From: Escherichia phage ALITA
Direction: 5' to 3' (one strand)
Length of the DNA stretch: 64,000 nt
Sequence record: PP359570
The position numbers were made by a program, and so were the translations under genes. How positions within the stretch are numbered: position 1 is the stretch's first letter; each line of letters starts with the position of its first letter. The notes beneath the pieces are model-generated. The model ran no database searches, was not told where the DNA came from, and worked only from the letters and a program-made list of their open reading frames with translations. This document shows, in pieces, positions 6,153 to 63,462 of the stretch.

Positions 6153-6623
6153 TTAGTCAGATTCCCAAATGTTGTCTTTCTTAACCCACATTCGTTGATT
6201 ATCTGAACCTCTATAACGTTTCGTTGTTGGTTGATTCATATCATACTTACCATCTATCACTATGTCAACCAGTTTTTTAATTTTCTCTGGAATTTCTTCA
6301 AAAAGATATCCTGTATATAAGACAATATCTTTTTTGTTTCCAAAACAATCTCTTACCTTCTCAAGAACATACTCTACAGTGTCAATGTTCTCTTTGTCAA
6401 GAGGTTCACCACCTAAAACTGTTAATCCTTTAATGAAAGGTCGAGATAAATCTTCCAAGATAAGATCTAATGTTTCAGTAGTGAACTCTTGTCCGTAGTT
6501 ATACGACCAGGCTTTCTGGTTAAAGCAGCCACGGCAACCGTGGCTACAACCGCTCACCCACAAAGAGCATCTTACACCATCACCGTTGAGCATGTCAACA
6601 GGTTCATATCCGGCGTAATTCAA
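6153..6623 (-). CDS. nrdG: anaerobic ribonucleotide reductase activating protein (radical SAM)
   Basis: 156 aa, Cys cluster CSLWVSGCSHGCRGC, immediately downstream of and overlapping nrdD. Confidence 0.8.
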   Translation of the reverse strand: MNYAGYEPVDMLNGDGVRCSLWVSGCSHGCRGCFNQKAWSYNYGQEFTTETLDLILEDLSRPFIKGLTVLGGEPLDKENIDTVEYVLEKVRDCFGNKKDIVLYTGYLFEEIPEKIKKLVDIVIDGKYDMNQPTTKRYRGSDNQRMWVKKDNIWESD

Positions 6624-8419
6624 AAATGTTTCTCCCTTTCTAGTACCTCTTGCATTTTACCTTTATTATAAGGGCGAGAGTTAGGGGCAGAAAGGTATCC
6701 TGACACTCTTCTGATTACAGATATAGATTCTTCCTCATGATTGCCACAACTTGGACACTCGAAGCCTTTAGCTGTTGCCTTAAATTCACCATGAAAACCA
6801 CATTTGAAACACTGATCTACAGGTTGGTTCACGCCAAAATAAGGAATTTTGTTGTAGGCATAATCTACAAGAGTTTCCAGTGCTTGCAAGTTATTTTTAA
6901 GGTTTGGTGTTTCTACATAACCTATGTTCCCACCGTTACTGATTTGTGCAAAACCTTCCTCATAATCCCACTTTTGGAACGGGGTAGTGTGCATCCACAC
7001 AGGTTGATGGAAAGAGTTTGTCAAGTAGTCACGATCAATAGAACCAGGATAGCGATCATTTAATGCTTTGGCAAATTTATAGCACAAGGATTCTGCTGGT
7101 GTTCCATACAAACTAAAAGCTAAACCAGAACGTTCTTTAAATGTGCCACAGATATCCTTCATATATTGAAGGATGTTTTTACCCATTGCTTTTGGATTGG
7201 TGTTACCTGGGTATAAAATCTCCATAGCTTCTGCTAAACCTACATAACCGATACTAATAGAGGCATAACCACCTTCAAATAGTTTACCAATCTCTTCATT
7301 AGCTTCTAGTCGAGCTAAAGCCCCTTCCATAAACAATGTAGGGTTTTGAGATGCTTTGGTATGTCTAATACGGTTAACACGTAGCATATGTGCCTTATAC
7401 GCCACCTCCATATGTTGTTCCAACAGTTCAGTAAATAAGATGCCCTTTTCACGGGACTCTGCTGCAATGATAGGTAAGTTTAAAGAAACTACGCCTAAGT
7501 TGAAACGACCATCATATTTTTCACCTTGCTCTGTTGCATAGTATGACAAGAAGCTACGGCAACCCATGCTTGTGACGCGACCATCTGAAGATCCTGTAAC
7601 TTCTTTATTTAAAGGTACAGAGATAAAATCAGGATAAATGCGTTCAGCACAACACTCCATTGCCAGTTGCTTCAAATCATAGTTTGGATCGCCAGCTTTC
7701 ATGTTAACACCATCTTCCAAGAAGAAGATAACTTTAGGAAACACAGGAGTTACCCTATCTTTTCCCAATCCTTGTTTGTGCACCATTAGGTAGTTTTTAG
7801 TGATCATTCTACCAAAAGCAGAGGTATCCAAACCTAAACTAATTGTTATAAAAGGTGACTGACCATTTACACTCATTAGAGTGTTCACCTGGTAGATTAA
7901 AGTTTGCATTGCATCATAGACCTGTTTATCTACCATACGCATAGCAATATCATAATCGCCAACATCGGCATATATTTTATTAAAACTTGCTTTAACGTAT
8001 TGACTAAGCCCAGTATCAACATGTGCACAAGTTTGTCCACCATATTGGCTAGAAGCTACTGCTTGAATAATTTGAGTTAGGACAGTAGTCGCTACACCGA
8101 TAGATTTTGGTTTTTCAATATGTGCATTACCAATACGGAAACCGTTCTCAAGCATATCTTGGTAATTTACCAGGCAACAATTAGTTAAAGGTGAGAGTAA
8201 ATAATCTAAATCGTGAATGTGACCATACCCACTTTTATGCCATTCTGCCAGATCTTCCGGTAAAATATGGGTCATTGCCATGTGCTTGCTTAGGATACCT
8301 GCTAGTAAGTCTCGGTGAGTATTAACAATCATTGCAGGTTTGTTTGCATTTTCACGAGTAAATTCTTCGGATGTTTGTTCGAGGAATCCGATTACATCCT
8401 CATATAGTTTTTGGGTCAT
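6620..8419 (-). CDS. nrdD: anaerobic ribonucleoside-triphosphate reductase
   Basis: ~600 aa; C-terminal glycine-radical motif RRVSGYLS and Zn-ribbon Cys pairs (CFKCGF...CPSCG); start set at MTQKL with GGAGG RBS; uninterrupted (no intron). Confidence 0.85.
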   Translation of the reverse strand: MTQKLYEDVIGFLEQTSEEFTRENANKPAMIVNTHRDLLAGILSKHMAMTHILPEDLAEWHKSGYGHIHDLDYLLSPLTNCCLVNYQDMLENGFRIGNAHIEKPKSIGVATTVLTQIIQAVASSQYGGQTCAHVDTGLSQYVKASFNKIYADVGDYDIAMRMVDKQVYDAMQTLIYQVNTLMSVNGQSPFITISLGLDTSAFGRMITKNYLMVHKQGLGKDRVTPVFPKVIFFLEDGVNMKAGDPNYDLKQLAMECCAERIYPDFISVPLNKEVTGSSDGRVTSMGCRSFLSYYATEQGEKYDGRFNLGVVSLNLPIIAAESREKGILFTELLEQHMEVAYKAHMLRVNRIRHTKASQNPTLFMEGALARLEANEEIGKLFEGGYASISIGYVGLAEAMEILYPGNTNPKAMGKNILQYMKDICGTFKERSGLAFSLYGTPAESLCYKFAKALNDRYPGSIDRDYLTNSFHQPVWMHTTPFQKWDYEEGFAQISNGGNIGYVETPNLKNNLQALETLVDYAYNKIPYFGVNQPVDQCFKCGFHGEFKATAKGFECPSCGNHEEESISVIRRVSGYLSAPNSRPYNKGKMQEVLEREKHF

Positions 8420-8435
8420 TAATCCTCCGTGGAAA

Positions 8436-8462
8436 ATAAAAGCCAGCATTAAGCTGGCTTTA
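8436..8462 (-). terminator. rho-independent terminator-like hairpin
   Basis: AGCCAGC-TTAA-GCTGGCT stem-loop followed by TTTTATTTT on minus strand, between the 316-aa gene and the nrdD RBS. Confidence 0.45.
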
Positions 8463-9476: not shown

Positions 9477-9911
9477 TTAGTTTAAAATTTCTTTTGCAAT
9501 GGTAGAAGCAAGTTTTCCATCATATTGATTCGGATACTCTGCTTTAAGGTGTTTCATCATATCTGGCATTTTCTTGCCTGTCAAGGCAAATTCTTCAGCA
9601 ATAGCTCGAAGATCATCTTCAGATAGCATTTCTGGCAAATATTTTTCCAGAGTGGTGATATCACGCATAGCTCGCTCACACTTGCTAATGGAGGCATTAA
9701 CTTTCTTAAGCGAGTCTAGTTCCTCTTTAGCGTGTGCAATACCAATCTTAACAATGTTAATCATAATATCGTCTTCTGATTTGTTTAGATTTGCCTTTTG
9801 AGTACGAGCAAGGTCAAACTCACCAATAATATTAGTTAACAAAGCAAAAGCACCTTTATCGGTTGTACGTGCTAAGATACGATCTGCTTTCATTTGTGTC
9901 ACAATAGACAT
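9477..9911 (-). CDS. GatB/YqeY-domain protein
   Basis: 144 aa, all-helical; C-terminal ...DGKLASTIAKEIL resembles the GatB/YqeY C-terminal signature. Confidence 0.5.
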   Translation of the reverse strand: MSIVTQMKADRILARTTDKGAFALLTNIIGEFDLARTQKANLNKSEDDIMINIVKIGIAHAKEELDSLKKVNASISKCERAMRDITTLEKYLPEMLSEDDLRAIAEEFALTGKKMPDMMKHLKAEYPNQYDGKLASTIAKEILN

Positions 9912-9923
9912 TCTATTCTCCTC

Positions 9924-10496
9924 TTATTTGCTAATGCTTTGAATCTTATTTACAACACGGTTTATTGCCAGTGAAGCCCTAGGCTCCGCAATACCTGTTG
10001 CATAGATATAAGGATGACCTCTTGGAGACTCCCTCATACCGAATGAACCTAATTCTAAACCATATTTATCCTCTACGTCAACCCCAATATTAGTGGGTAC
10101 TAAATATGTTTTAACTCCATAATAAGTAGAGAAGAAACAGCGCATAGCGTTAGCATACTCTTCAATTGTAGCATCAGGGTAGAACTCAATCAACTCCAAT
10201 TTCAAGAAAATATTGAAATGAGTGTCATCTAAATTTTCTTCTGTACGGTAACATGGTGTTAGTGCCATATAAGGATTACCTGCTGCAAATTCAAAACCAT
10301 CCTTCTCCATTTGCAGGAAAGATTGTTCTGCACTGGCTACATAGTATTTACCGTTAGGATGCCCTAATGGGCGATCCTCTTTATTTTCTGGTAGTGTGTA
10401 CGCCAGTATATCAGCATCCACGAGATATGGAACTTCCAACATTTGTGCAAACCGACCATAGTAATCAATAGCTTGAGCTATTACTTCAACATTCAT
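9924..10496 (-). CDS. minimal class II (IIb, AspRS/AsnRS/LysRS-type) aminoacyl-tRNA-synthetase-like catalytic core
   Basis: Motif-2-like TPCYRTEENLDDTHFNIFLKLELIEFY (compare c-FRxE...H-PEFT-lE-Y), preceding YYVASAEQSFLQ (compare fyaLpqSPQlfKQ) and EVPYL motif-1-like; only 190 aa, no anticodon-binding domain. Confidence 0.45.
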   Translation of the reverse strand: MNVEVIAQAIDYYGRFAQMLEVPYLVDADILAYTLPENKEDRPLGHPNGKYYVASAEQSFLQMEKDGFEFAAGNPYMALTPCYRTEENLDDTHFNIFLKLELIEFYPDATIEEYANAMRCFFSTYYGVKTYLVPTNIGVDVEDKYGLELGSFGMRESPRGHPYIYATGIAEPRASLAINRVVNKIQSISK

Positions 10497-10744
10497 GAGC
10501 GACCTCCATTGCGGAATGCACGTTTAGTAATGTTCGACATAGTGATCAAATCTTGAAGCGTCATATCAGGAAAATGCTGTTCAAGAACACCTTCAACAGC
10601 GCCTACAATATCTGATAACTCAATAAGTTGCATCAGCTTGCAATCTTGATCAATAGCATCCTGAAGTTCATAAAGCTCTTCTTGAATTTTAGCAATAGAA
10701 CCATATTCCTCTTTGCTAATCTCCTTCAAATGATACCCTGCCAC
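10493..10744 (-). CDS. hypothetical protein (possible MazG-like all-alpha NTP pyrophosphohydrolase)
   Basis: 83 aa; EE..E...E.LSDIVGAVEGVLE pattern is reminiscent of MazG-type EExxE motifs; weak. Confidence 0.35.
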   Translation of the reverse strand: MAGYHLKEISKEEYGSIAKIQEELYELQDAIDQDCKLMQLIELSDIVGAVEGVLEQHFPDMTLQDLITMSNITKRAFRNGGRS

Positions 10745-10754
10745 TTTAACCCCC

Positions 10755-13529
10755 TTAGTTTACCAGTTTATTTATATCTGGTAAAAGATTTATTTCACCT
10801 AAGAAATCACCTTCACCTTCCTCTAGCCAACTCTCATATGCTTGTGCATGATTATAGTTACCATCAAAAGAATCTGCAACAAATTTTTCTACAGTTTTTC
10901 GAGATGTGCCAGCACCAAATACACCAAGTTTAATACCATTGATCGGTAAAGTGGTGCTTGTGGGTACTTTCTCTGTTGCAACACGGTTGATATCTATAAT
11001 CTCCTGTACGGTTGTGTTCCATTGTAAGCATTTAACACAACGGGTATGCGCTACATACAGTAGGTTTCGCTCTGCCTCTTCCAGTCCTACCCATTCACCA
11101 GTCTTTTTATCATAGTTGGAAGGAAAATCATTAGCAACAATAACCTGATCCCACTCCAAACCTTTAGACTTGTGTGCTGTAGTCAGTGTGACTTTTGCTG
11201 TAGGAGAATTTCTATGCGTTCTAAGTGTATGTGCTATAGTGTTTGCCTTACCAGAAACTACGATGTTTAACAAGCGTTTAGCATCTGGATCAGCCTCTGC
11301 ACACTCAACAAATTCATCCCAGTCTGCGTAAGGTAATACAGTTTCATGTTTTACTTTCTCAATATCTCCTCTCCGAAGAGCATTAACACTATCTACCATA
11401 GAGATAAAATCCCTGGTATCTACGTTAATAATAATTTCTTCCCCATCTGCAATACGATCCATTGCCTCCATAAGCAAGGTTAAATTCTTGCGAAAGATGA
11501 TAGTGTAAGGTTTTGTATAGTCTACAACATCTGATTTGTAGCTACCTACTACAGTATCAAAGCCTTTACCAACCAAAGGATGACGCAAAGGTTCTTTATC
11601 GCTTAAAATCATATTGGCAATGTTTGCCACTTTGGGGCCAAAACGGAAGCAAGCAGTTAATGGAAGTTCTGCCCCATACTTAGCTGTTTCAATCATCATA
11701 TTAGAGCTACCTCTAAATTGATAAATGCAGTTGTGGCTAAGAATTTCATTGCCAAAGAAGTTAGCAGTATCCTCTACTTCAATATCATAATAGATACCCT
11801 CACTATCTACAATGTCCACAATCTCTTCTGCCGTTACAGTATCACCATCTTTTACCAACACAGACATGCCTTTAAACAAACCCGCTGCCGGAATTAAGTT
11901 ATATTTGGCACTGTTCACAGAGGACATGCATTCTTTTAAAGATGCAAACGGAACTATTTCAAGGATCTTTTGTGCAAAACTCAATGCTTCACGATAAGAA
12001 TTGAAATATTTACGTACACGGTAACGACCTTCCAATTTAGCAGCACTTACGCTTACACCTGCTTTAATCAGTGAAGAATAGATCGGCATTTCACTTTCTG
12101 TCCACTCAAAACTAACTTGTGTTCCTTTACAACCTTGTGCTCGCAAAGTCACTGTTAGCATTTTTCTTTCATCTACTGCACAATTGATGCTGTGCCAGTG
12201 TGGATAAGCAAAATGATAATCTTTATCCTCTAAAAGTTTAAAACCATTTTGTCCGAATTGTTCAAAGATGTTATTGATCCTTTCTTGATTAATGCCGCGT
12301 GAACTTGCTTCAAATACACAAGTAGGAATGCCATATTGTAAACTGTAAGCCATTTCTTTTTCCATAGCAGCTTCACGGTTTTCAACAATATCCAACACCC
12401 ATAATTTCTGTGCTTTTTCAGAACGTGTACGTTGCCCCAGTTTAGAAAAACCTTCTTTATCATCGAATTTGTTAGTGATCCCTACTCGGAAACCTAAATC
12501 TTTCCTCCACATTAGGTATACCACCATCTGATCATCTTTCAGAACATAGGATGAAGCCCAAATACGATGGTTATGTGTCATATCTAAAGTTTTACCTGTG
12601 GCAGTAATAATATTCCTACCTTTTGTACGTGTAGATAAAGTCTTATTTGTTACTTTTCTAAATGTAACTTTACCATTAGAATAAGACTCTACCTTATCAC
12701 CGATTTGCAGGTCTTTCATTGTAACCTGACCATTCTCGGTATTAAGTACCGTGTTTTCCGACACACATTGGAATTCATCGCCCACTACCACAATTTGTTT
12801 TGCAGATTTAGCATTTCGCAGAATAGACAAGAATGCAGGGTTAACATCCTGGAATTCATCACCAAAAATAATATCATAACCAAGATCAGCACCAGACAAT
12901 TCAAACAATTTTACATAGGTGTCATGCGTCATTAAAGTATCTGTGTTAGGATCGATGCGCTCTCGCCACAATTGTTTTGCATACTTAACTACTTCTGTAA
13001 TTAGTTTGTGTTCGTTAATACCTTTTCTTTTAATATCTGCAAGATGTACACTAGGAAAATGTTTACGGCTGATAAAAGGATCATCCGAAAATTCAAACTT
13101 ACCTACGGTTTGCTTGATCATTAAACCGATCATAGCACGAGTTAAAAGTGTTTTACCTCGTTTATCAATAAGATTATTAATCTTAAATTTCTTTGCTATC
13201 TCACTACCTGTACCTGCAACGTTAACATACTGTCCTTCTGGTCGTGACAGTTTTGCACGTAAACGATGATCCAGGAATTGATAGCAAATAGAATGCAATG
13301 TACGGCATTCTACATTTAGTGGCATCTTACGTCGTGCTTCTTCTGCCATGCTTTTATTGAAAGCTAAGTAAAGAATGCGATCTTCTGTACTGTTAGCCAG
13401 CAAATAAAGTGTTGACGTTTTGCCTGATCCAGATTTAGCTTGGATAGTTAAAAAGCGATGGTCTGGAAAAGCCTCCTTAATAGCTGTTTGCTCTTCTGTT
13501 GGAGTGAAGCTCAACTCTTTCTTAGCCAT
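10755..13529 (-). CDS. UvrD/PcrA-like SF1 DNA helicase, interrupted by an in-frame intein
   Basis: Walker A AKSGSGKTST, motif II GDEFQD; motif III split as VVVGDEFQ / CIYQFRGSS by a 346-aa insertion; start set at MAKKE with GAGAGG RBS. Confidence 0.8.
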   Translation of the reverse strand: MAKKELSFTPTEEQTAIKEAFPDHRFLTIQAKSGSGKTSTLYLLANSTEDRILYLAFNKSMAEEARRKMPLNVECRTLHSICYQFLDHRLRAKLSRPEGQYVNVAGTGSEIAKKFKINNLIDKRGKTLLTRAMIGLMIKQTVGKFEFSDDPFISRKHFPSVHLADIKRKGINEHKLITEVVKYAKQLWRERIDPNTDTLMTHDTYVKLFELSGADLGYDIIFGDEFQDVNPAFLSILRNAKSAKQIVVVGDEFQCVSENTVLNTENGQVTMKDLQIGDKVESYSNGKVTFRKVTNKTLSTRTKGRNIITATGKTLDMTHNHRIWASSYVLKDDQMVVYLMWRKDLGFRVGITNKFDDKEGFSKLGQRTRSEKAQKLWVLDIVENREAAMEKEMAYSLQYGIPTCVFEASSRGINQERINNIFEQFGQNGFKLLEDKDYHFAYPHWHSINCAVDERKMLTVTLRAQGCKGTQVSFEWTESEMPIYSSLIKAGVSVSAAKLEGRYRVRKYFNSYREALSFAQKILEIVPFASLKECMSSVNSAKYNLIPAAGLFKGMSVLVKDGDTVTAEEIVDIVDSEGIYYDIEVEDTANFFGNEILSHNCIYQFRGSSNMMIETAKYGAELPLTACFRFGPKVANIANMILSDKEPLRHPLVGKGFDTVVGSYKSDVVDYTKPYTIIFRKNLTLLMEAMDRIADGEEIIINVDTRDFISMVDSVNALRRGDIEKVKHETVLPYADWDEFVECAEADPDAKRLLNIVVSGKANTIAHTLRTHRNSPTAKVTLTTAHKSKGLEWDQVIVANDFPSNYDKKTGEWVGLEEAERNLLYVAHTRCVKCLQWNTTVQEIIDINRVATEKVPTSTTLPINGIKLGVFGAGTSRKTVEKFVADSFDGNYNHAQAYESWLEEGEGDFLGEINLLPDINKLVN
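11730..12767 (-). mobile_element. intein (346 aa) within helicase motif III
   Basis: Begins with Cys (CVSENTVL...), ends ...SHN followed by Cys; block-B-like TxxH (THNH); excision would restore contiguous GDEFQ-CIYQFRGS; size suggests an embedded homing-endonuclease domain. Confidence 0.7.
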
Positions 13530-50138: not shown

Positions 50139-51128
50139 CTATTCCTCCATACATTTAAGAATATGTGCAATGACAGGTATAGTCCAACCGTTACCTAACA
50201 TCTTATATGCTTGTGTGTTACTACTCACTTTAAAGTAGTCATCTGGCACACCTTGCAAACGGCAACACTCTTTAACGGTTAACTTTCTATAATGTACGCC
50301 TTCACTCAATTTTTCAAAAGCATCTAAATATCTTCCAGGTGGAATGTAAGCTAATAGTACGTCTTTCGGCACAGTCGTGAGGCAACGAGTTTTTTCACTG
50401 TCCTGAACTTCCAAACAATGTACCAAACGATCAGTTTTAGATGTACTACGTTTGCCATTTTCATTAATTCTACGCCCATATATTGCTGCTGGATAAAAAA
50501 CCAGTTGTCTGCGACTCTTTTCAAAATACTGTTCTATATTACCACCTTTGGCATAATTTGCATCTATGCAATAAGCCTTATCTCTGTCTACAATACTATC
50601 ATCTTCAATGATATCTTGCAACACTTCATTGGTAATATCCCAGGGTTTTATTTCCCAGTTGCACCAGTATAAACGTTGTCTATTCTGTGCCGTGAAATCT
50701 GCGGAGTTAATGAATACGGGATCAACACCTAAGTAACTTGTGATCACGTTTTCCCACTCCACTTTCATCTTAACGTTTTCAAGCATGAACTTAACATTAG
50801 GGTTAAACTTTTTAATATGTTCAAGAATCTCAACATATTCGAAGAATAGCTTAGATCGCGGATCTTGAAAGTTCAAACCCTTACCAGAAGAAGAGAAGCC
50901 TTGACACGGACTACCACCTAACAAAAGATCAATTTCTCCCCACGGGATATCCCATTCTCTCCATTTTGTAACATCACCTAACTGAATAATATCTGGAAAA
51001 TTTGCTTGGCTTTCAGCTATGGCGAATTTGTCTAATTCTGAAGCATAATATGTATCTACGTCAATACCTGCACTTTTTAGCGCAAGCATTCCTCCTGACA
51101 TGCCATCAAAAAGACTTAAAACTTTCAT
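50139..51128 (-). CDS. DNA (cytosine-5)-methyltransferase
   Basis: Motif I LSLFDGMSGG, motif IV GGSPCQGFS, motif VI ENV. Confidence 0.85.
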   Translation of the reverse strand: MKVLSLFDGMSGGMLALKSAGIDVDTYYASELDKFAIAESQANFPDIIQLGDVTKWREWDIPWGEIDLLLGGSPCQGFSSSGKGLNFQDPRSKLFFEYVEILEHIKKFNPNVKFMLENVKMKVEWENVITSYLGVDPVFINSADFTAQNRQRLYWCNWEIKPWDITNEVLQDIIEDDSIVDRDKAYCIDANYAKGGNIEQYFEKSRRQLVFYPAAIYGRRINENGKRSTSKTDRLVHCLEVQDSEKTRCLTTVPKDVLLAYIPPGRYLDAFEKLSEGVHYRKLTVKECCRLQGVPDDYFKVSSNTQAYKMLGNGWTIPVIAHILKCMEE

Positions 51129-62472: not shown

Positions 62473-63462
62473 TTAAACTTTATTTTCCCACCACTCTTTG
62501 TTATCTACATACCAATCAATGGTTGAATAAAGTTTTTCTTCAAATGTGCCTTTAGCTTTCCACCCTAATTCCTTTTCAATCTTATAAGGATTCACTTCAT
62601 ATCTTAGATCATGTCCAGGTCTATCTGTAACCATCTCAATTAGGCTACAAGCATCTGTTTCAGATGGATACACCGCATCCATATAATCACAAATCATATA
62701 GATTACATCAATATTAGTTCTAGGGTTTCTGCTCCCAATATTATATGTTTCTCCAGATTTGCCTTTAGTTACTACTAGGTGTAATGCTTCTGCGTGATCG
62801 TCAACGTATAACCAGTCTCTTACCTGAAGACCATTGCCATAAACAGGGATTGGTTTATTCATCAAGATATTTGTTATCGTTTTAGGTATTAGTTTTTCTG
62901 GATGATGGTATGCTCCAAAATTATTTGAACAATTTGTTATAACTGTCGGAATACCATAAGTACGATGCCACGCTCTTACCAAATGATCGCTTGCTGCCTT
63001 AGATGCAGCATATGGACTACTTGGCTTATAAGGATTCTGTTCTGTAAACGGATAATCCCCTTCTTCCATATCACCATATACTTCATCTGTTGAAATATGA
63101 TGGAACATTTTAAGATTTGATTTATCTCCCATTAAACGAACAGCTTCTAGGAGATTAAATGTCCCAACAATATTTGAATTTATAAAAACACTCGGTGATG
63201 CTATTGAATTATCTACGTGACTTTCTGCTGCAAGATGCATTATATAATCTGGATTAACATCTGCCACAATCTTAGCAGTTAACTGCGCATTTGTCAAGTC
63301 AACACGACAAAACTTTACATTGGGTGTTTCTGATAAATTTCTAGGGTCTGAAGCGTAACCCCATTTATCTATAACGTAAATATCATTTTTAGTATTTTTA
63401 GCCAGGAAACGAACTACTGCACTTCCAATAAAGCCTAAACCACCTGTTACTAAGTATTTCAT
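62473..63462 (-). CDS. rmlB: dTDP-glucose 4,6-dehydratase
   Basis: [17 protein letters not shown], catalytic YAASKAASD (YxxxK), 329 aa. Confidence 0.9.

Follow-up and report, generated by a model that had tools for sequence, protein, structure and literature searches.

A predicted class-1 intein in helicase motif III of Escherichia phage ALITA carries a putative, divergent GIY-YIG-like mobility module

Inteins in UvrD-family helicases have precedents: 16 were catalogued by Novikova et al. 2016 (PMC4760082), and another was described in a UvrD-like helicase of Bacillus phage CampHawk (PMC8785237). The element considered here, a 346 amino acid (aa) insert in the UvrD/Rep-like helicase of Escherichia phage ALITA (sequence record PP359570, of which a stretch of 64,000 nucleotides (nt), hereafter the window, was analyzed), likewise lies in a superfamily 1 (SF1) UvrD-like helicase, in or near an ATPase motif, so that the likeness is one of host protein and general position. 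The CampHawk insert is ~275 aa long versus 346 aa in ALITA. Much closer are the inteins of the sister phages PaulScherrer (MZ501100, bas60_0082), JohannJBalmer (MZ501084) and vB_EcoM_ZYD (PQ110661), which occupy the same site of the same gene and are the same intein, that of PaulScherrer differing from the window at 3 of 1038 intein nt. The sister-phage GenBank records already label these genes "intein-containing UvrD / Rep family helicase precursor" and mark helicase and intein by separate mat_peptide features, and the intein call itself is therefore not new. The original phi92 record notes only a helicase with "2 discontinous domains". The BASEL paper reports that inteins were identified during comparative annotation, and nothing further (PMC8594841); in the literature searched we found nothing on the sister-phage intein that describes its type of endonuclease, its flanking tract or its pattern in the population. 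A 2024 statement that no inteins had been reported in coliphages (PMC11162368) is contradicted by the coliphage intein described here.

The nucleases found in inteins were limited in a 2025 survey to the LAGLIDADG, HNH, VSR-like and endonuclease VII-like types (10.1101/2025.01.02.630785). GIY-YIG domains, with the core motifs GIY, YIG, a central Arg and a C-terminal Glu (PMC1564403), were not known in inteins (PMC1564403, 2006; PMC2677866, 2009). Judged from its residues and from relatives that lack it, the ALITA insert is a genuine class-1 intein for which splicing is predicted, and its middle ~220 aa appear to form an undescribed mobility module that is neither LAGLIDADG nor HNH. We consider it likely that this is a homing class-1 intein in motif III with a two-part module, one part a divergent GIY-YIG nuclease-like domain and the other an alpha/beta recognition domain; splicing, cleavage and GIY-YIG chemistry are predicted features of this reading.

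The helicase gene, on the minus strand at window positions 10755..13529, is an uninterrupted open reading frame (ORF) of 924 aa, with its ATG at 13529, a GAGAGG ribosome-binding site 5' of that ATG, and a stop codon at 10755-10757. The exteins score above Pfam cut-offs for UvrD-helicase (45 bits), UvrD_C (42 bits, aa 763-833) and AAA_19 (40 bits), and Walker A, motif II, motif III and the C-terminal UvrD_C motifs were all located, as in SF1 helicases of the UvrD/Rep/PcrA group. The gene shares 99.5% identity with that of Escherichia phage Antha and 98.7% with gene 198 of phi92, indicating that the window belongs to a phi92-like myovirus (Justusliebigvirus, Stephanstirmvirinae). An earlier sequence-only reading had placed an intein in motif III of a UvrD-like helicase, and, although it named no strand, it had the split right to the residue: the minus-strand frame runs without interruption through ...QIVVVGDEFQ(254) / C(255)VSENTVL ... 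FFGNEILSHN(600) / C(601)IYQFRGSS, where slashes mark predicted splice junctions. The parts of the gene, given by window coordinates, are these:

10755..13529, minus strand: precursor gene for the UvrD/Rep-like SF1 helicase and its intein, the equivalent of phi92 gp198 (continuous ORF and Pfam)
12768..13529, minus strand: N-extein, aa 1-254, ending VVVGDEFQ
13413..13439, minus strand: Walker A, AKSGSGKTS, in the N-extein
12840..12872, minus strand: motif II, IIFGDEFQDVN, in the N-extein
12768..12791, minus strand: first half of motif III, VVVGDEFQ, in the N-extein
11730..12767, minus strand: predicted intein, 346 aa (protein aa 255-600), with Cys1, TxxH, His-Asn and +1 Cys
12537..12767, minus strand: Hint N-terminal half, intein aa 1-77, with blocks A and B
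12738..12767, minus strand: block A, C1-VSENTVLNT, in the Hint N-terminal half
12555..12587, minus strand: block B, LDM-T64-HN-H67-RIWA, in the Hint N-terminal half
12180..12536, minus strand: first part of the middle module (subdomain 1), intein aa 78-196, a candidate nuclease of divergent GIY-YIG-like type; Y84, R94, G96, R113 and W123 are invariant in the family, E117 and E138 nearly so
11880..12179, minus strand: second part of the middle module (subdomain 2), intein aa 197-296, small, variable and of alpha/beta type, in which an RxRK.F..Y..A..FA motif is conserved
11730..11879, minus strand: Hint C-terminal half, intein aa 297-346, above the NCBIfam intein_Cterm cut-off
11730..11792, minus strand: blocks F/G, YYDIEVEDTANFFGNEILS-H345-N346, in the Hint C-terminal half
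10755..11729, minus strand: C-extein, aa 601-924 and stop, beginning with the +1 Cys (Pfam UvrD_C)
11727..11729, minus strand: +1 Cys codon, start of the C-extein
11703..11729, minus strand: second half of motif III, CIYQFRGSS, in the C-extein
11037..11063, minus strand: motif VI-like LLYVAHTRC, in the C-extein

The residues on which the earlier intein call was based, a Cys at the start of the 346-aa insert, a block-B TxxH, and a final His-Asn followed by Cys, are all present, and the class-1 splicing set is complete (C1, T64-x-x-H67, H345, N346, C+1). The isolated insert scores 29.9 bits with Pfam Hint, for which the cut-off is 29.7, and 20-23 bits with NCBIfam intein_Cterm (cut-off 15.6), while Pfam Intein_splicing, at 33.7 bits (E 4e-8), falls just under its gathering cut-off of 35.8, and NCBIfam intein_Nterm gives 18-20 bits for a cut-off of 24.5. 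In an alignment of 71 family sequences Cys1 is found in 62/71 and His67 in 64/71.

The exact boundary of the insert is provided by relatives that lack it. Seven Justusliebigvirus phages (Eryne, Paula, alia, JLBYU50, EmilieFrey, KKE7M and 92CQ) have a helicase gene of 1737 nt at 97-99% identity, and intein-plus alleles are longer than these by exactly 1038 nt (346 codons). Motif III is contiguous in these intein-free alleles (GDEYQ-SIYQFRGSQ), and it is also unbroken in the sister-genus phage phAPEC8 (GDEFQ-SIYQFRGSQ). An alignment with intein-free homologs had been named as the comparison that could expose the 346 aa as a native helicase subdomain; the near-identical phages and phAPEC8 lack precisely these codons, with motif III intact, and the insert is therefore an intein and not a native subdomain. 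The +1 residue, a Cys in the window phage and a Ser in the intein-free alleles, belongs to the extein, because the 1038-nt gap fixes the boundary in front of it. The intein mat_peptide features in GenBank are 1041 nt long and include the +1 Cys codon (L001:3973-5013 in MZ501100; L012:1023-2063 in MZ501084); given the gap to the empty alleles, with which the canonical splicing mechanism agrees, the C-terminal end of these features overshoots by one codon. Among other database records, five labeled "Campylobacter phage" with the host Campylobacter jejuni (A150, MG065639; A145, MG065645; C3, MG065656; A110a, MG065689; B15, MG065650) contain a gene ~99% identical to that of E. coli phi92-like/phAPEC8-like phages; mislabeled hosts or contamination by coliphages may be the explanation.

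The sequence-only reading had also taken the size of the insert to imply an embedded homing-endonuclease domain. An extra module is indeed present, but it is not of the usual kind, as intein aa ~78-296 had no match in Pfam, NCBIfam or PHROG and no LAGLIDADG or HNH signature, which was also the case for 8 relatives. AlphaFold2, supplied with the 71-sequence alignment, gave a model with a predicted local distance difference test (pLDDT) of 94.7 and a predicted template-modeling score (pTM) of 0.91 (a model from a 3-sequence alignment was unusable, at pLDDT 41), in which the N- and C-terminal segments are predicted to form the Hint fold. A Foldseek comparison with the PDB matched the Hint part only; for the LAGLIDADG inteins PI-SceI, PI-PfuI and TliVMA the Hint part alone aligns, with a TM-score <0.3 over the whole query, and the middle module is unrelated to theirs. 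Subdomain 1 is modeled as a strand (81-88), a second strand (92-98), a short helix (111-116), a strand (121-128) and a helix (131-145), and this order, strand-strand-(helix)-strand-helix, appears to be that of the GIY-YIG core in the I-TevI catalytic domain and the UvrC N-terminal domain.

Profile comparisons point in the same direction. When 36 members were scanned singly, the only families to match more than one were GIY-YIG (4 members) and T5orf172 (2 members), the latter of which we take to be a GIY-YIG relative, and the register was consistent, for example with member residues 4-64 on GIY-YIG profile positions 1-67 of 78; the best PF01541 match had E 0.013 and 16.2 bits, below the cut-off of 22.6. 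In hhalign, comparison with a profile of 121 UvrC GIY-YIG domains aligned 66 columns with template positions 3-73 of 83 (P 3.4e-4, probability 38%). In this alignment Y84 is paired with the Tyr of GIY, R94 and G96 with the Tyr and Gly of YIG, and the catalytic Glu with E138, which is residue eight in helix 2. Controls gave P 0.53 for a reversed template, P 0.07-0.69 for 20 column-shuffled templates and P 0.0046 for subdomain 2, and in view of this last value the GIY-YIG signal is modest. A subdomain 1 profile search against PDB sequences found no match, and hhalign of subdomain 1 with single GIY-YIG sequences or a 5-sequence alignment gave no significance.

The module departs from described GIY-YIG domains in that the second Tyr is an invariant Arg, with FRVG in place of YIG/YVG, in the 10-15 residue loop that precedes the Arg-bearing helix, and in being embedded in frame within an intein. 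Since no curated profile threshold was reached, we name subdomain 1 "GIY-YIG-like" without assigning it to that family; that it is a divergent domain of this kind seems likely to us, the fold and the profiles each being weak evidence and consistent with one another. Strands and helices of subdomain 2 were confidently modeled, and it had no recurrent Pfam or PDB sequence match; it is probably a DNA-binding or specificity module. GIY-YIG homing enzymes are also built of two parts, a nuclease and a DNA-binding module.

The family to which this module belongs is large. A word-indexed protein search found just two relatives, an intein-bearing UvrD gene on a GC-rich contig and a free-standing ORF of 265 aa, and wrongly suggested rarity, but an exhaustive HMMER search with a three-sequence profile of the middle module recovered 1,226 clusters with E <= 1e-3, of which 512 had E <= 1e-10. 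Boundaries were readable in 96 of the best 150 of the 1,226 clusters, and in all of these (96/96) the insertion is at helicase motif III, with the pattern GDxxQ / (C/A)...(about 340 aa)...ILSHN / (S 70, C 25, T 1)IYxFRGA. The ending HN, HQ or HD was the pattern used to locate the intein end in these members, and 94/96 have Cys first, such an ending, and then S, C or T. All relatives tested with Pfam were UvrD-like helicases. The 71-sequence alignment has invariant Y84, M86, G92, R94, G96, R113 and W123, and nearly invariant E117 and E138; the window copy retains every family-invariant residue.

The module occurs twice in some proteins, its second copy belonging to an intein at motif II (VDE/C, DEAQDLNK/C) or after motif IV. 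Six UvrD-like proteins of 1,800-2,500 aa (P0003, P0004, P0006-P0008 and P0068) contain 2-3 inteins with the middle module, within motif II or directly behind it, at motif III and after motif IV (...LIKHN/C). In the BFVD database a similar overall fold, with a TM-score of about 0.6 over the whole query, was found in one viral helicase and in one viral protein named adenine methyltransferase. The latter, A0A8S5TZY8 (named adenine-specific DNA methyltransferase; TM-score ~0.57 to the whole intein model), suggests that a Hint-plus-module architecture may occur in a host protein that is not a helicase. In addition, a GC-rich metagenomic contig (ERZ25039553 contig_79597, L005:4997-8107) encodes a UvrD gene with an intein at the same site, having Cys1 and a Ser at +1; this gene is split into four called genes by apparent frameshifts, which could be assembly errors or signs of a decaying gene.

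Relatives that have lost the ability to splice are, in our view, the strongest indirect argument for a role as homing endonuclease. In eight free-standing relatives of 265-366 aa, Met replaces Cys1 (8/8), Gln mostly replaces the block-B His (6/8) and the terminal Asn is missing (8/8), while Y84, R94, G96, R113, W123 and E138 are kept in 8/8 and E117 in 7/8. In 5/7 neighborhoods inspected a UvrD-like helicase gene of 478-499 aa without an intein is found at a distance of 11-65 nt from the free-standing relative; of the remaining two, one has other neighbors and one is on a contig too short to judge, which makes the count 5/6 of the informative cases. The five genes beside a helicase encode proteins of 265-350 aa and come from uncultured phage-like contigs:

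L006:6001-6798, P0002, free-standing relative by a helicase
L019:3340-4392, P0042, free-standing relative by a helicase
L020:1943-2929, P0062, free-standing relative by a helicase
L022:3001-4002, P0047, free-standing relative by a helicase
L025:3001-4014, P0057, free-standing relative by a helicase

Because selection keeps the module where there is no splicing, and does so beside the target gene, the module would appear to act on helicase DNA as a homing endonuclease. The free-standing homing endonucleases of the T4 seg/mob type also adjoin their targets. A comparable case is yeast HO, a free-standing endonuclease derived from an intein (PMC3384342): these five proteins, like HO, keep a Hint scaffold without splicing residues, and unlike HO their nuclease module is not LAGLIDADG. 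The free-standing relatives look like instances of a transition from intein to free-standing homing gene. On the contig that encodes P0002, a canonical GIY-YIG homing-endonuclease gene (PF01541; L006:8306-9112, minus strand) is found immediately downstream of the helicase gene, which is thus flanked by two endonuclease-like genes.

The distribution of the intein among Justusliebigvirus phages was examined with 9 intein-plus and 7 intein-minus alleles. A 200-nt spliced-junction query matched ~36 records in which intein-type flanks are split by the intein (a gene search found 37 full-length carriers), and 20 Justusliebigvirus records with an empty site, which have only 85.5-87% identity to the query; among the records matched, none had an empty site with intein-type flanks, the class expected from precise loss or recombination. 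Pairs of plus and minus alleles have 24-27 differences in 85 nt around the site, located at -27 to +50, and pairs within a class have 0-4. Beyond this tract, plus/minus pairs are as alike as same-class pairs (1.4%). The comparison of plus and minus alleles delimits two segments of extein that co-segregate with the intein:

12768..12794, minus strand: upstream co-segregating extein tract, -27..-1 nt
11679..11729, minus strand: downstream co-segregating extein tract, 0..+50 nt

The tract alters the protein, with QIVVVGDEFQ / CIYQFRGSSNMMIETAKYG in carriers versus QVVVVGDEYQ / SIYQFRGSQNMMKETSTYG in empty alleles. It looks like a co-conversion tract from a divergent donor, and it may also shield carriers from cutting. 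The nearest neighbor of an extein is often of the opposite intein state (window and Eryne, 7 differences in 1,652 nt; KKE7M and M2929, 10 nt), and near-identical inteins are found in diverged exteins (window and PaulScherrer, 3 versus 27 nt; KKP3264 and M2929, 0 versus 14 nt). These alleles have the features by which a homing intein is recognized, namely presence/absence polymorphism at one site, linked flanks, and a distribution that disagrees with the relationships of the host gene. The first pair compared, with 3 versus 27 differences, had made the intein seem more recent and less variable than the gene that hosts it, an idea that was rejected when nine alleles showed the intein diversity to be higher.

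Across the whole intein the ratio of nonsynonymous to synonymous polymorphism (pN/pS) is 0.077 in the nine carriers. The 119 codons of intein aa 78-196 have no amino acid change at all (pN = 0) at pS 0.10, indicating that the middle module is neither decaying nor a passenger. Amino acid polymorphism is concentrated in aa 197-296, with few sites in the Hint parts.

Motif III of SF1 helicases couples ATP hydrolysis to DNA binding. The precursor would be translated with this motif split and hence should be inactive as a helicase. Splicing would begin with an N-S acyl shift at Cys1, followed by trans-thioesterification to the +1 Cys, cyclization of Asn346 with the assistance of His345, and an S-N shift, yielding a 578-aa helicase that reads Q-C-I-Y where Q-S-I-Y is usual, and a free 346-aa intein. 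In a mixed infection the free intein would cleave the helicase gene of a related phage that has no intein, close to where motif III is encoded, and recombinational repair from the intein-plus genome would copy the intein together with ~27 nt of upstream and ~50 nt of downstream extein, which is to say that the intein would home.

Several observations weigh against this account of a homing intein with a GIY-YIG-like nuclease. Intein diversity among the nine carriers is 2.5% (pS 0.092), above the 1.4% (pS 0.058) of the exteins, and the intein is therefore no recent single arrival. The scattered distribution could in part be due to ordinary recombination between phages, and tract boundaries that are constant from allele to allele are explained no less well by a single ancestral acquisition than by repeated homing. 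As for the nuclease, the second canonical GIY-YIG Tyr is replaced by Arg, a conserved Asn is not evident, and the hhalign register does not support R113 as the catalytic Arg, whose position is ambiguous.

These points bring into consideration an intein that is real but immobile, with a middle module that is DNA-binding, regulatory or structural, and a patchy distribution that results from recombination and occasional precise loss. The missing Tyr, an intein whose excess diversity makes it old in the lineage, and flanking tract boundaries identical in all alleles examined would all be accommodated by such an element. We nevertheless consider it unlikely, since an absence of amino acid change over 119 codons at pS 0.10 would be unexpected for it, seven invariant polar or aromatic residues are kept across >70 diverse members, and splicing-dead copies sit beside the helicase in five of six informative cases, as free-standing homing endonucleases do. 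The same module is also found at several helicase motifs, and a similar fold in a named methyltransferase, pointing to mobility that targets sites.

A second possibility is that the intein is a conditional regulator, its splicing gated by, for example, redox state (through Cys1 and the +1 Cys) or DNA damage, and helicase activity thereby controlled. The insertion in the motif that couples ATP to DNA, where the precursor should be inactive, would suit such a role, as would a +1 Cys that contrasts with the Ser of intein-free alleles and of 70/96 family members and might form a disulfide with Cys1; inteins clustering at functional sites have been proposed to be regulatory (PMC4760082). However, ~20 close phages do without the intein, so it is dispensable for the life cycle, and regulation leaves the conserved module, the free-standing derivatives and the co-segregating tract unexplained. 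We think regulation a very improbable explanation of the element, and in any case one that is compatible with a homing intein and not an alternative to it. Least credible of all is a native helicase subdomain or a non-splicing insertion of the Hint or bacterial intein-like (BIL) type, which the phi92 annotation and the sub-threshold Intein_splicing score might suggest, and which is refuted by ~98%-identical alleles in which precisely the insert is missing and motif III is unbroken, by the presence of every class-1 catalytic residue and the +1 nucleophile, and by the termini of 94/96 family members, whose endings were located with the search pattern.

Returning to the homing intein, one may tentatively go further and propose that its module represents a large, unrecognized class of in-frame intein homing endonucleases, of more than 1,200 sequence clusters, with a divergent GIY-YIG-type part (Y...R-x-G...E) and an alpha/beta recognition part, inserted at SF1 motifs II, III and IV and repeatedly giving rise to HO-like free-standing offshoots; we regard this as conceivable without leaning towards it. 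If the module is of GIY-YIG type, it would fill a gap stated in the literature ("not in inteins") and provide genome engineering with a further class of nucleases that have long targets, and if the proposed class is real, the phi92-like coliphages would lend themselves to experiments on it. These phages provide natural intein-plus/minus pairs that differ by <1% once the 80-nt tract is set aside and can be grown on E. coli K-12 (PaulScherrer, JohannJBalmer, EmilieFrey), making splicing, the mapping of cleavage sites and super-Mendelian inheritance directly testable. The splicing-dead relatives beside helicase genes, for their part, would document the transition between intein and free-standing homing gene in phages.

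The helicase gene is followed on its 3' side by small genes at window positions 9477..10744 on the minus strand (L001:1723-2990), which are labeled putative aspartyl/glutamyl-tRNA amidotransferase-like and tRNA-synthetase-like in sister phages; a MazG-like protein of pyrophosphohydrolase fold is also among the small genes directly downstream. Further downstream, at about 6620..8449, is an anaerobic ribonucleotide reductase gene. Elsewhere in the window two ORFs are of equal length, 329 aa, and had been candidates for paralogues; this was rejected, as they are unrelated to each other. They are located at 50139..51128 and 62473..63462, both on the minus strand, and by eye one resembles a cytosine-C5 DNA methyltransferase and the other an enzyme of dTDP-glucose 4,6-dehydratase type.

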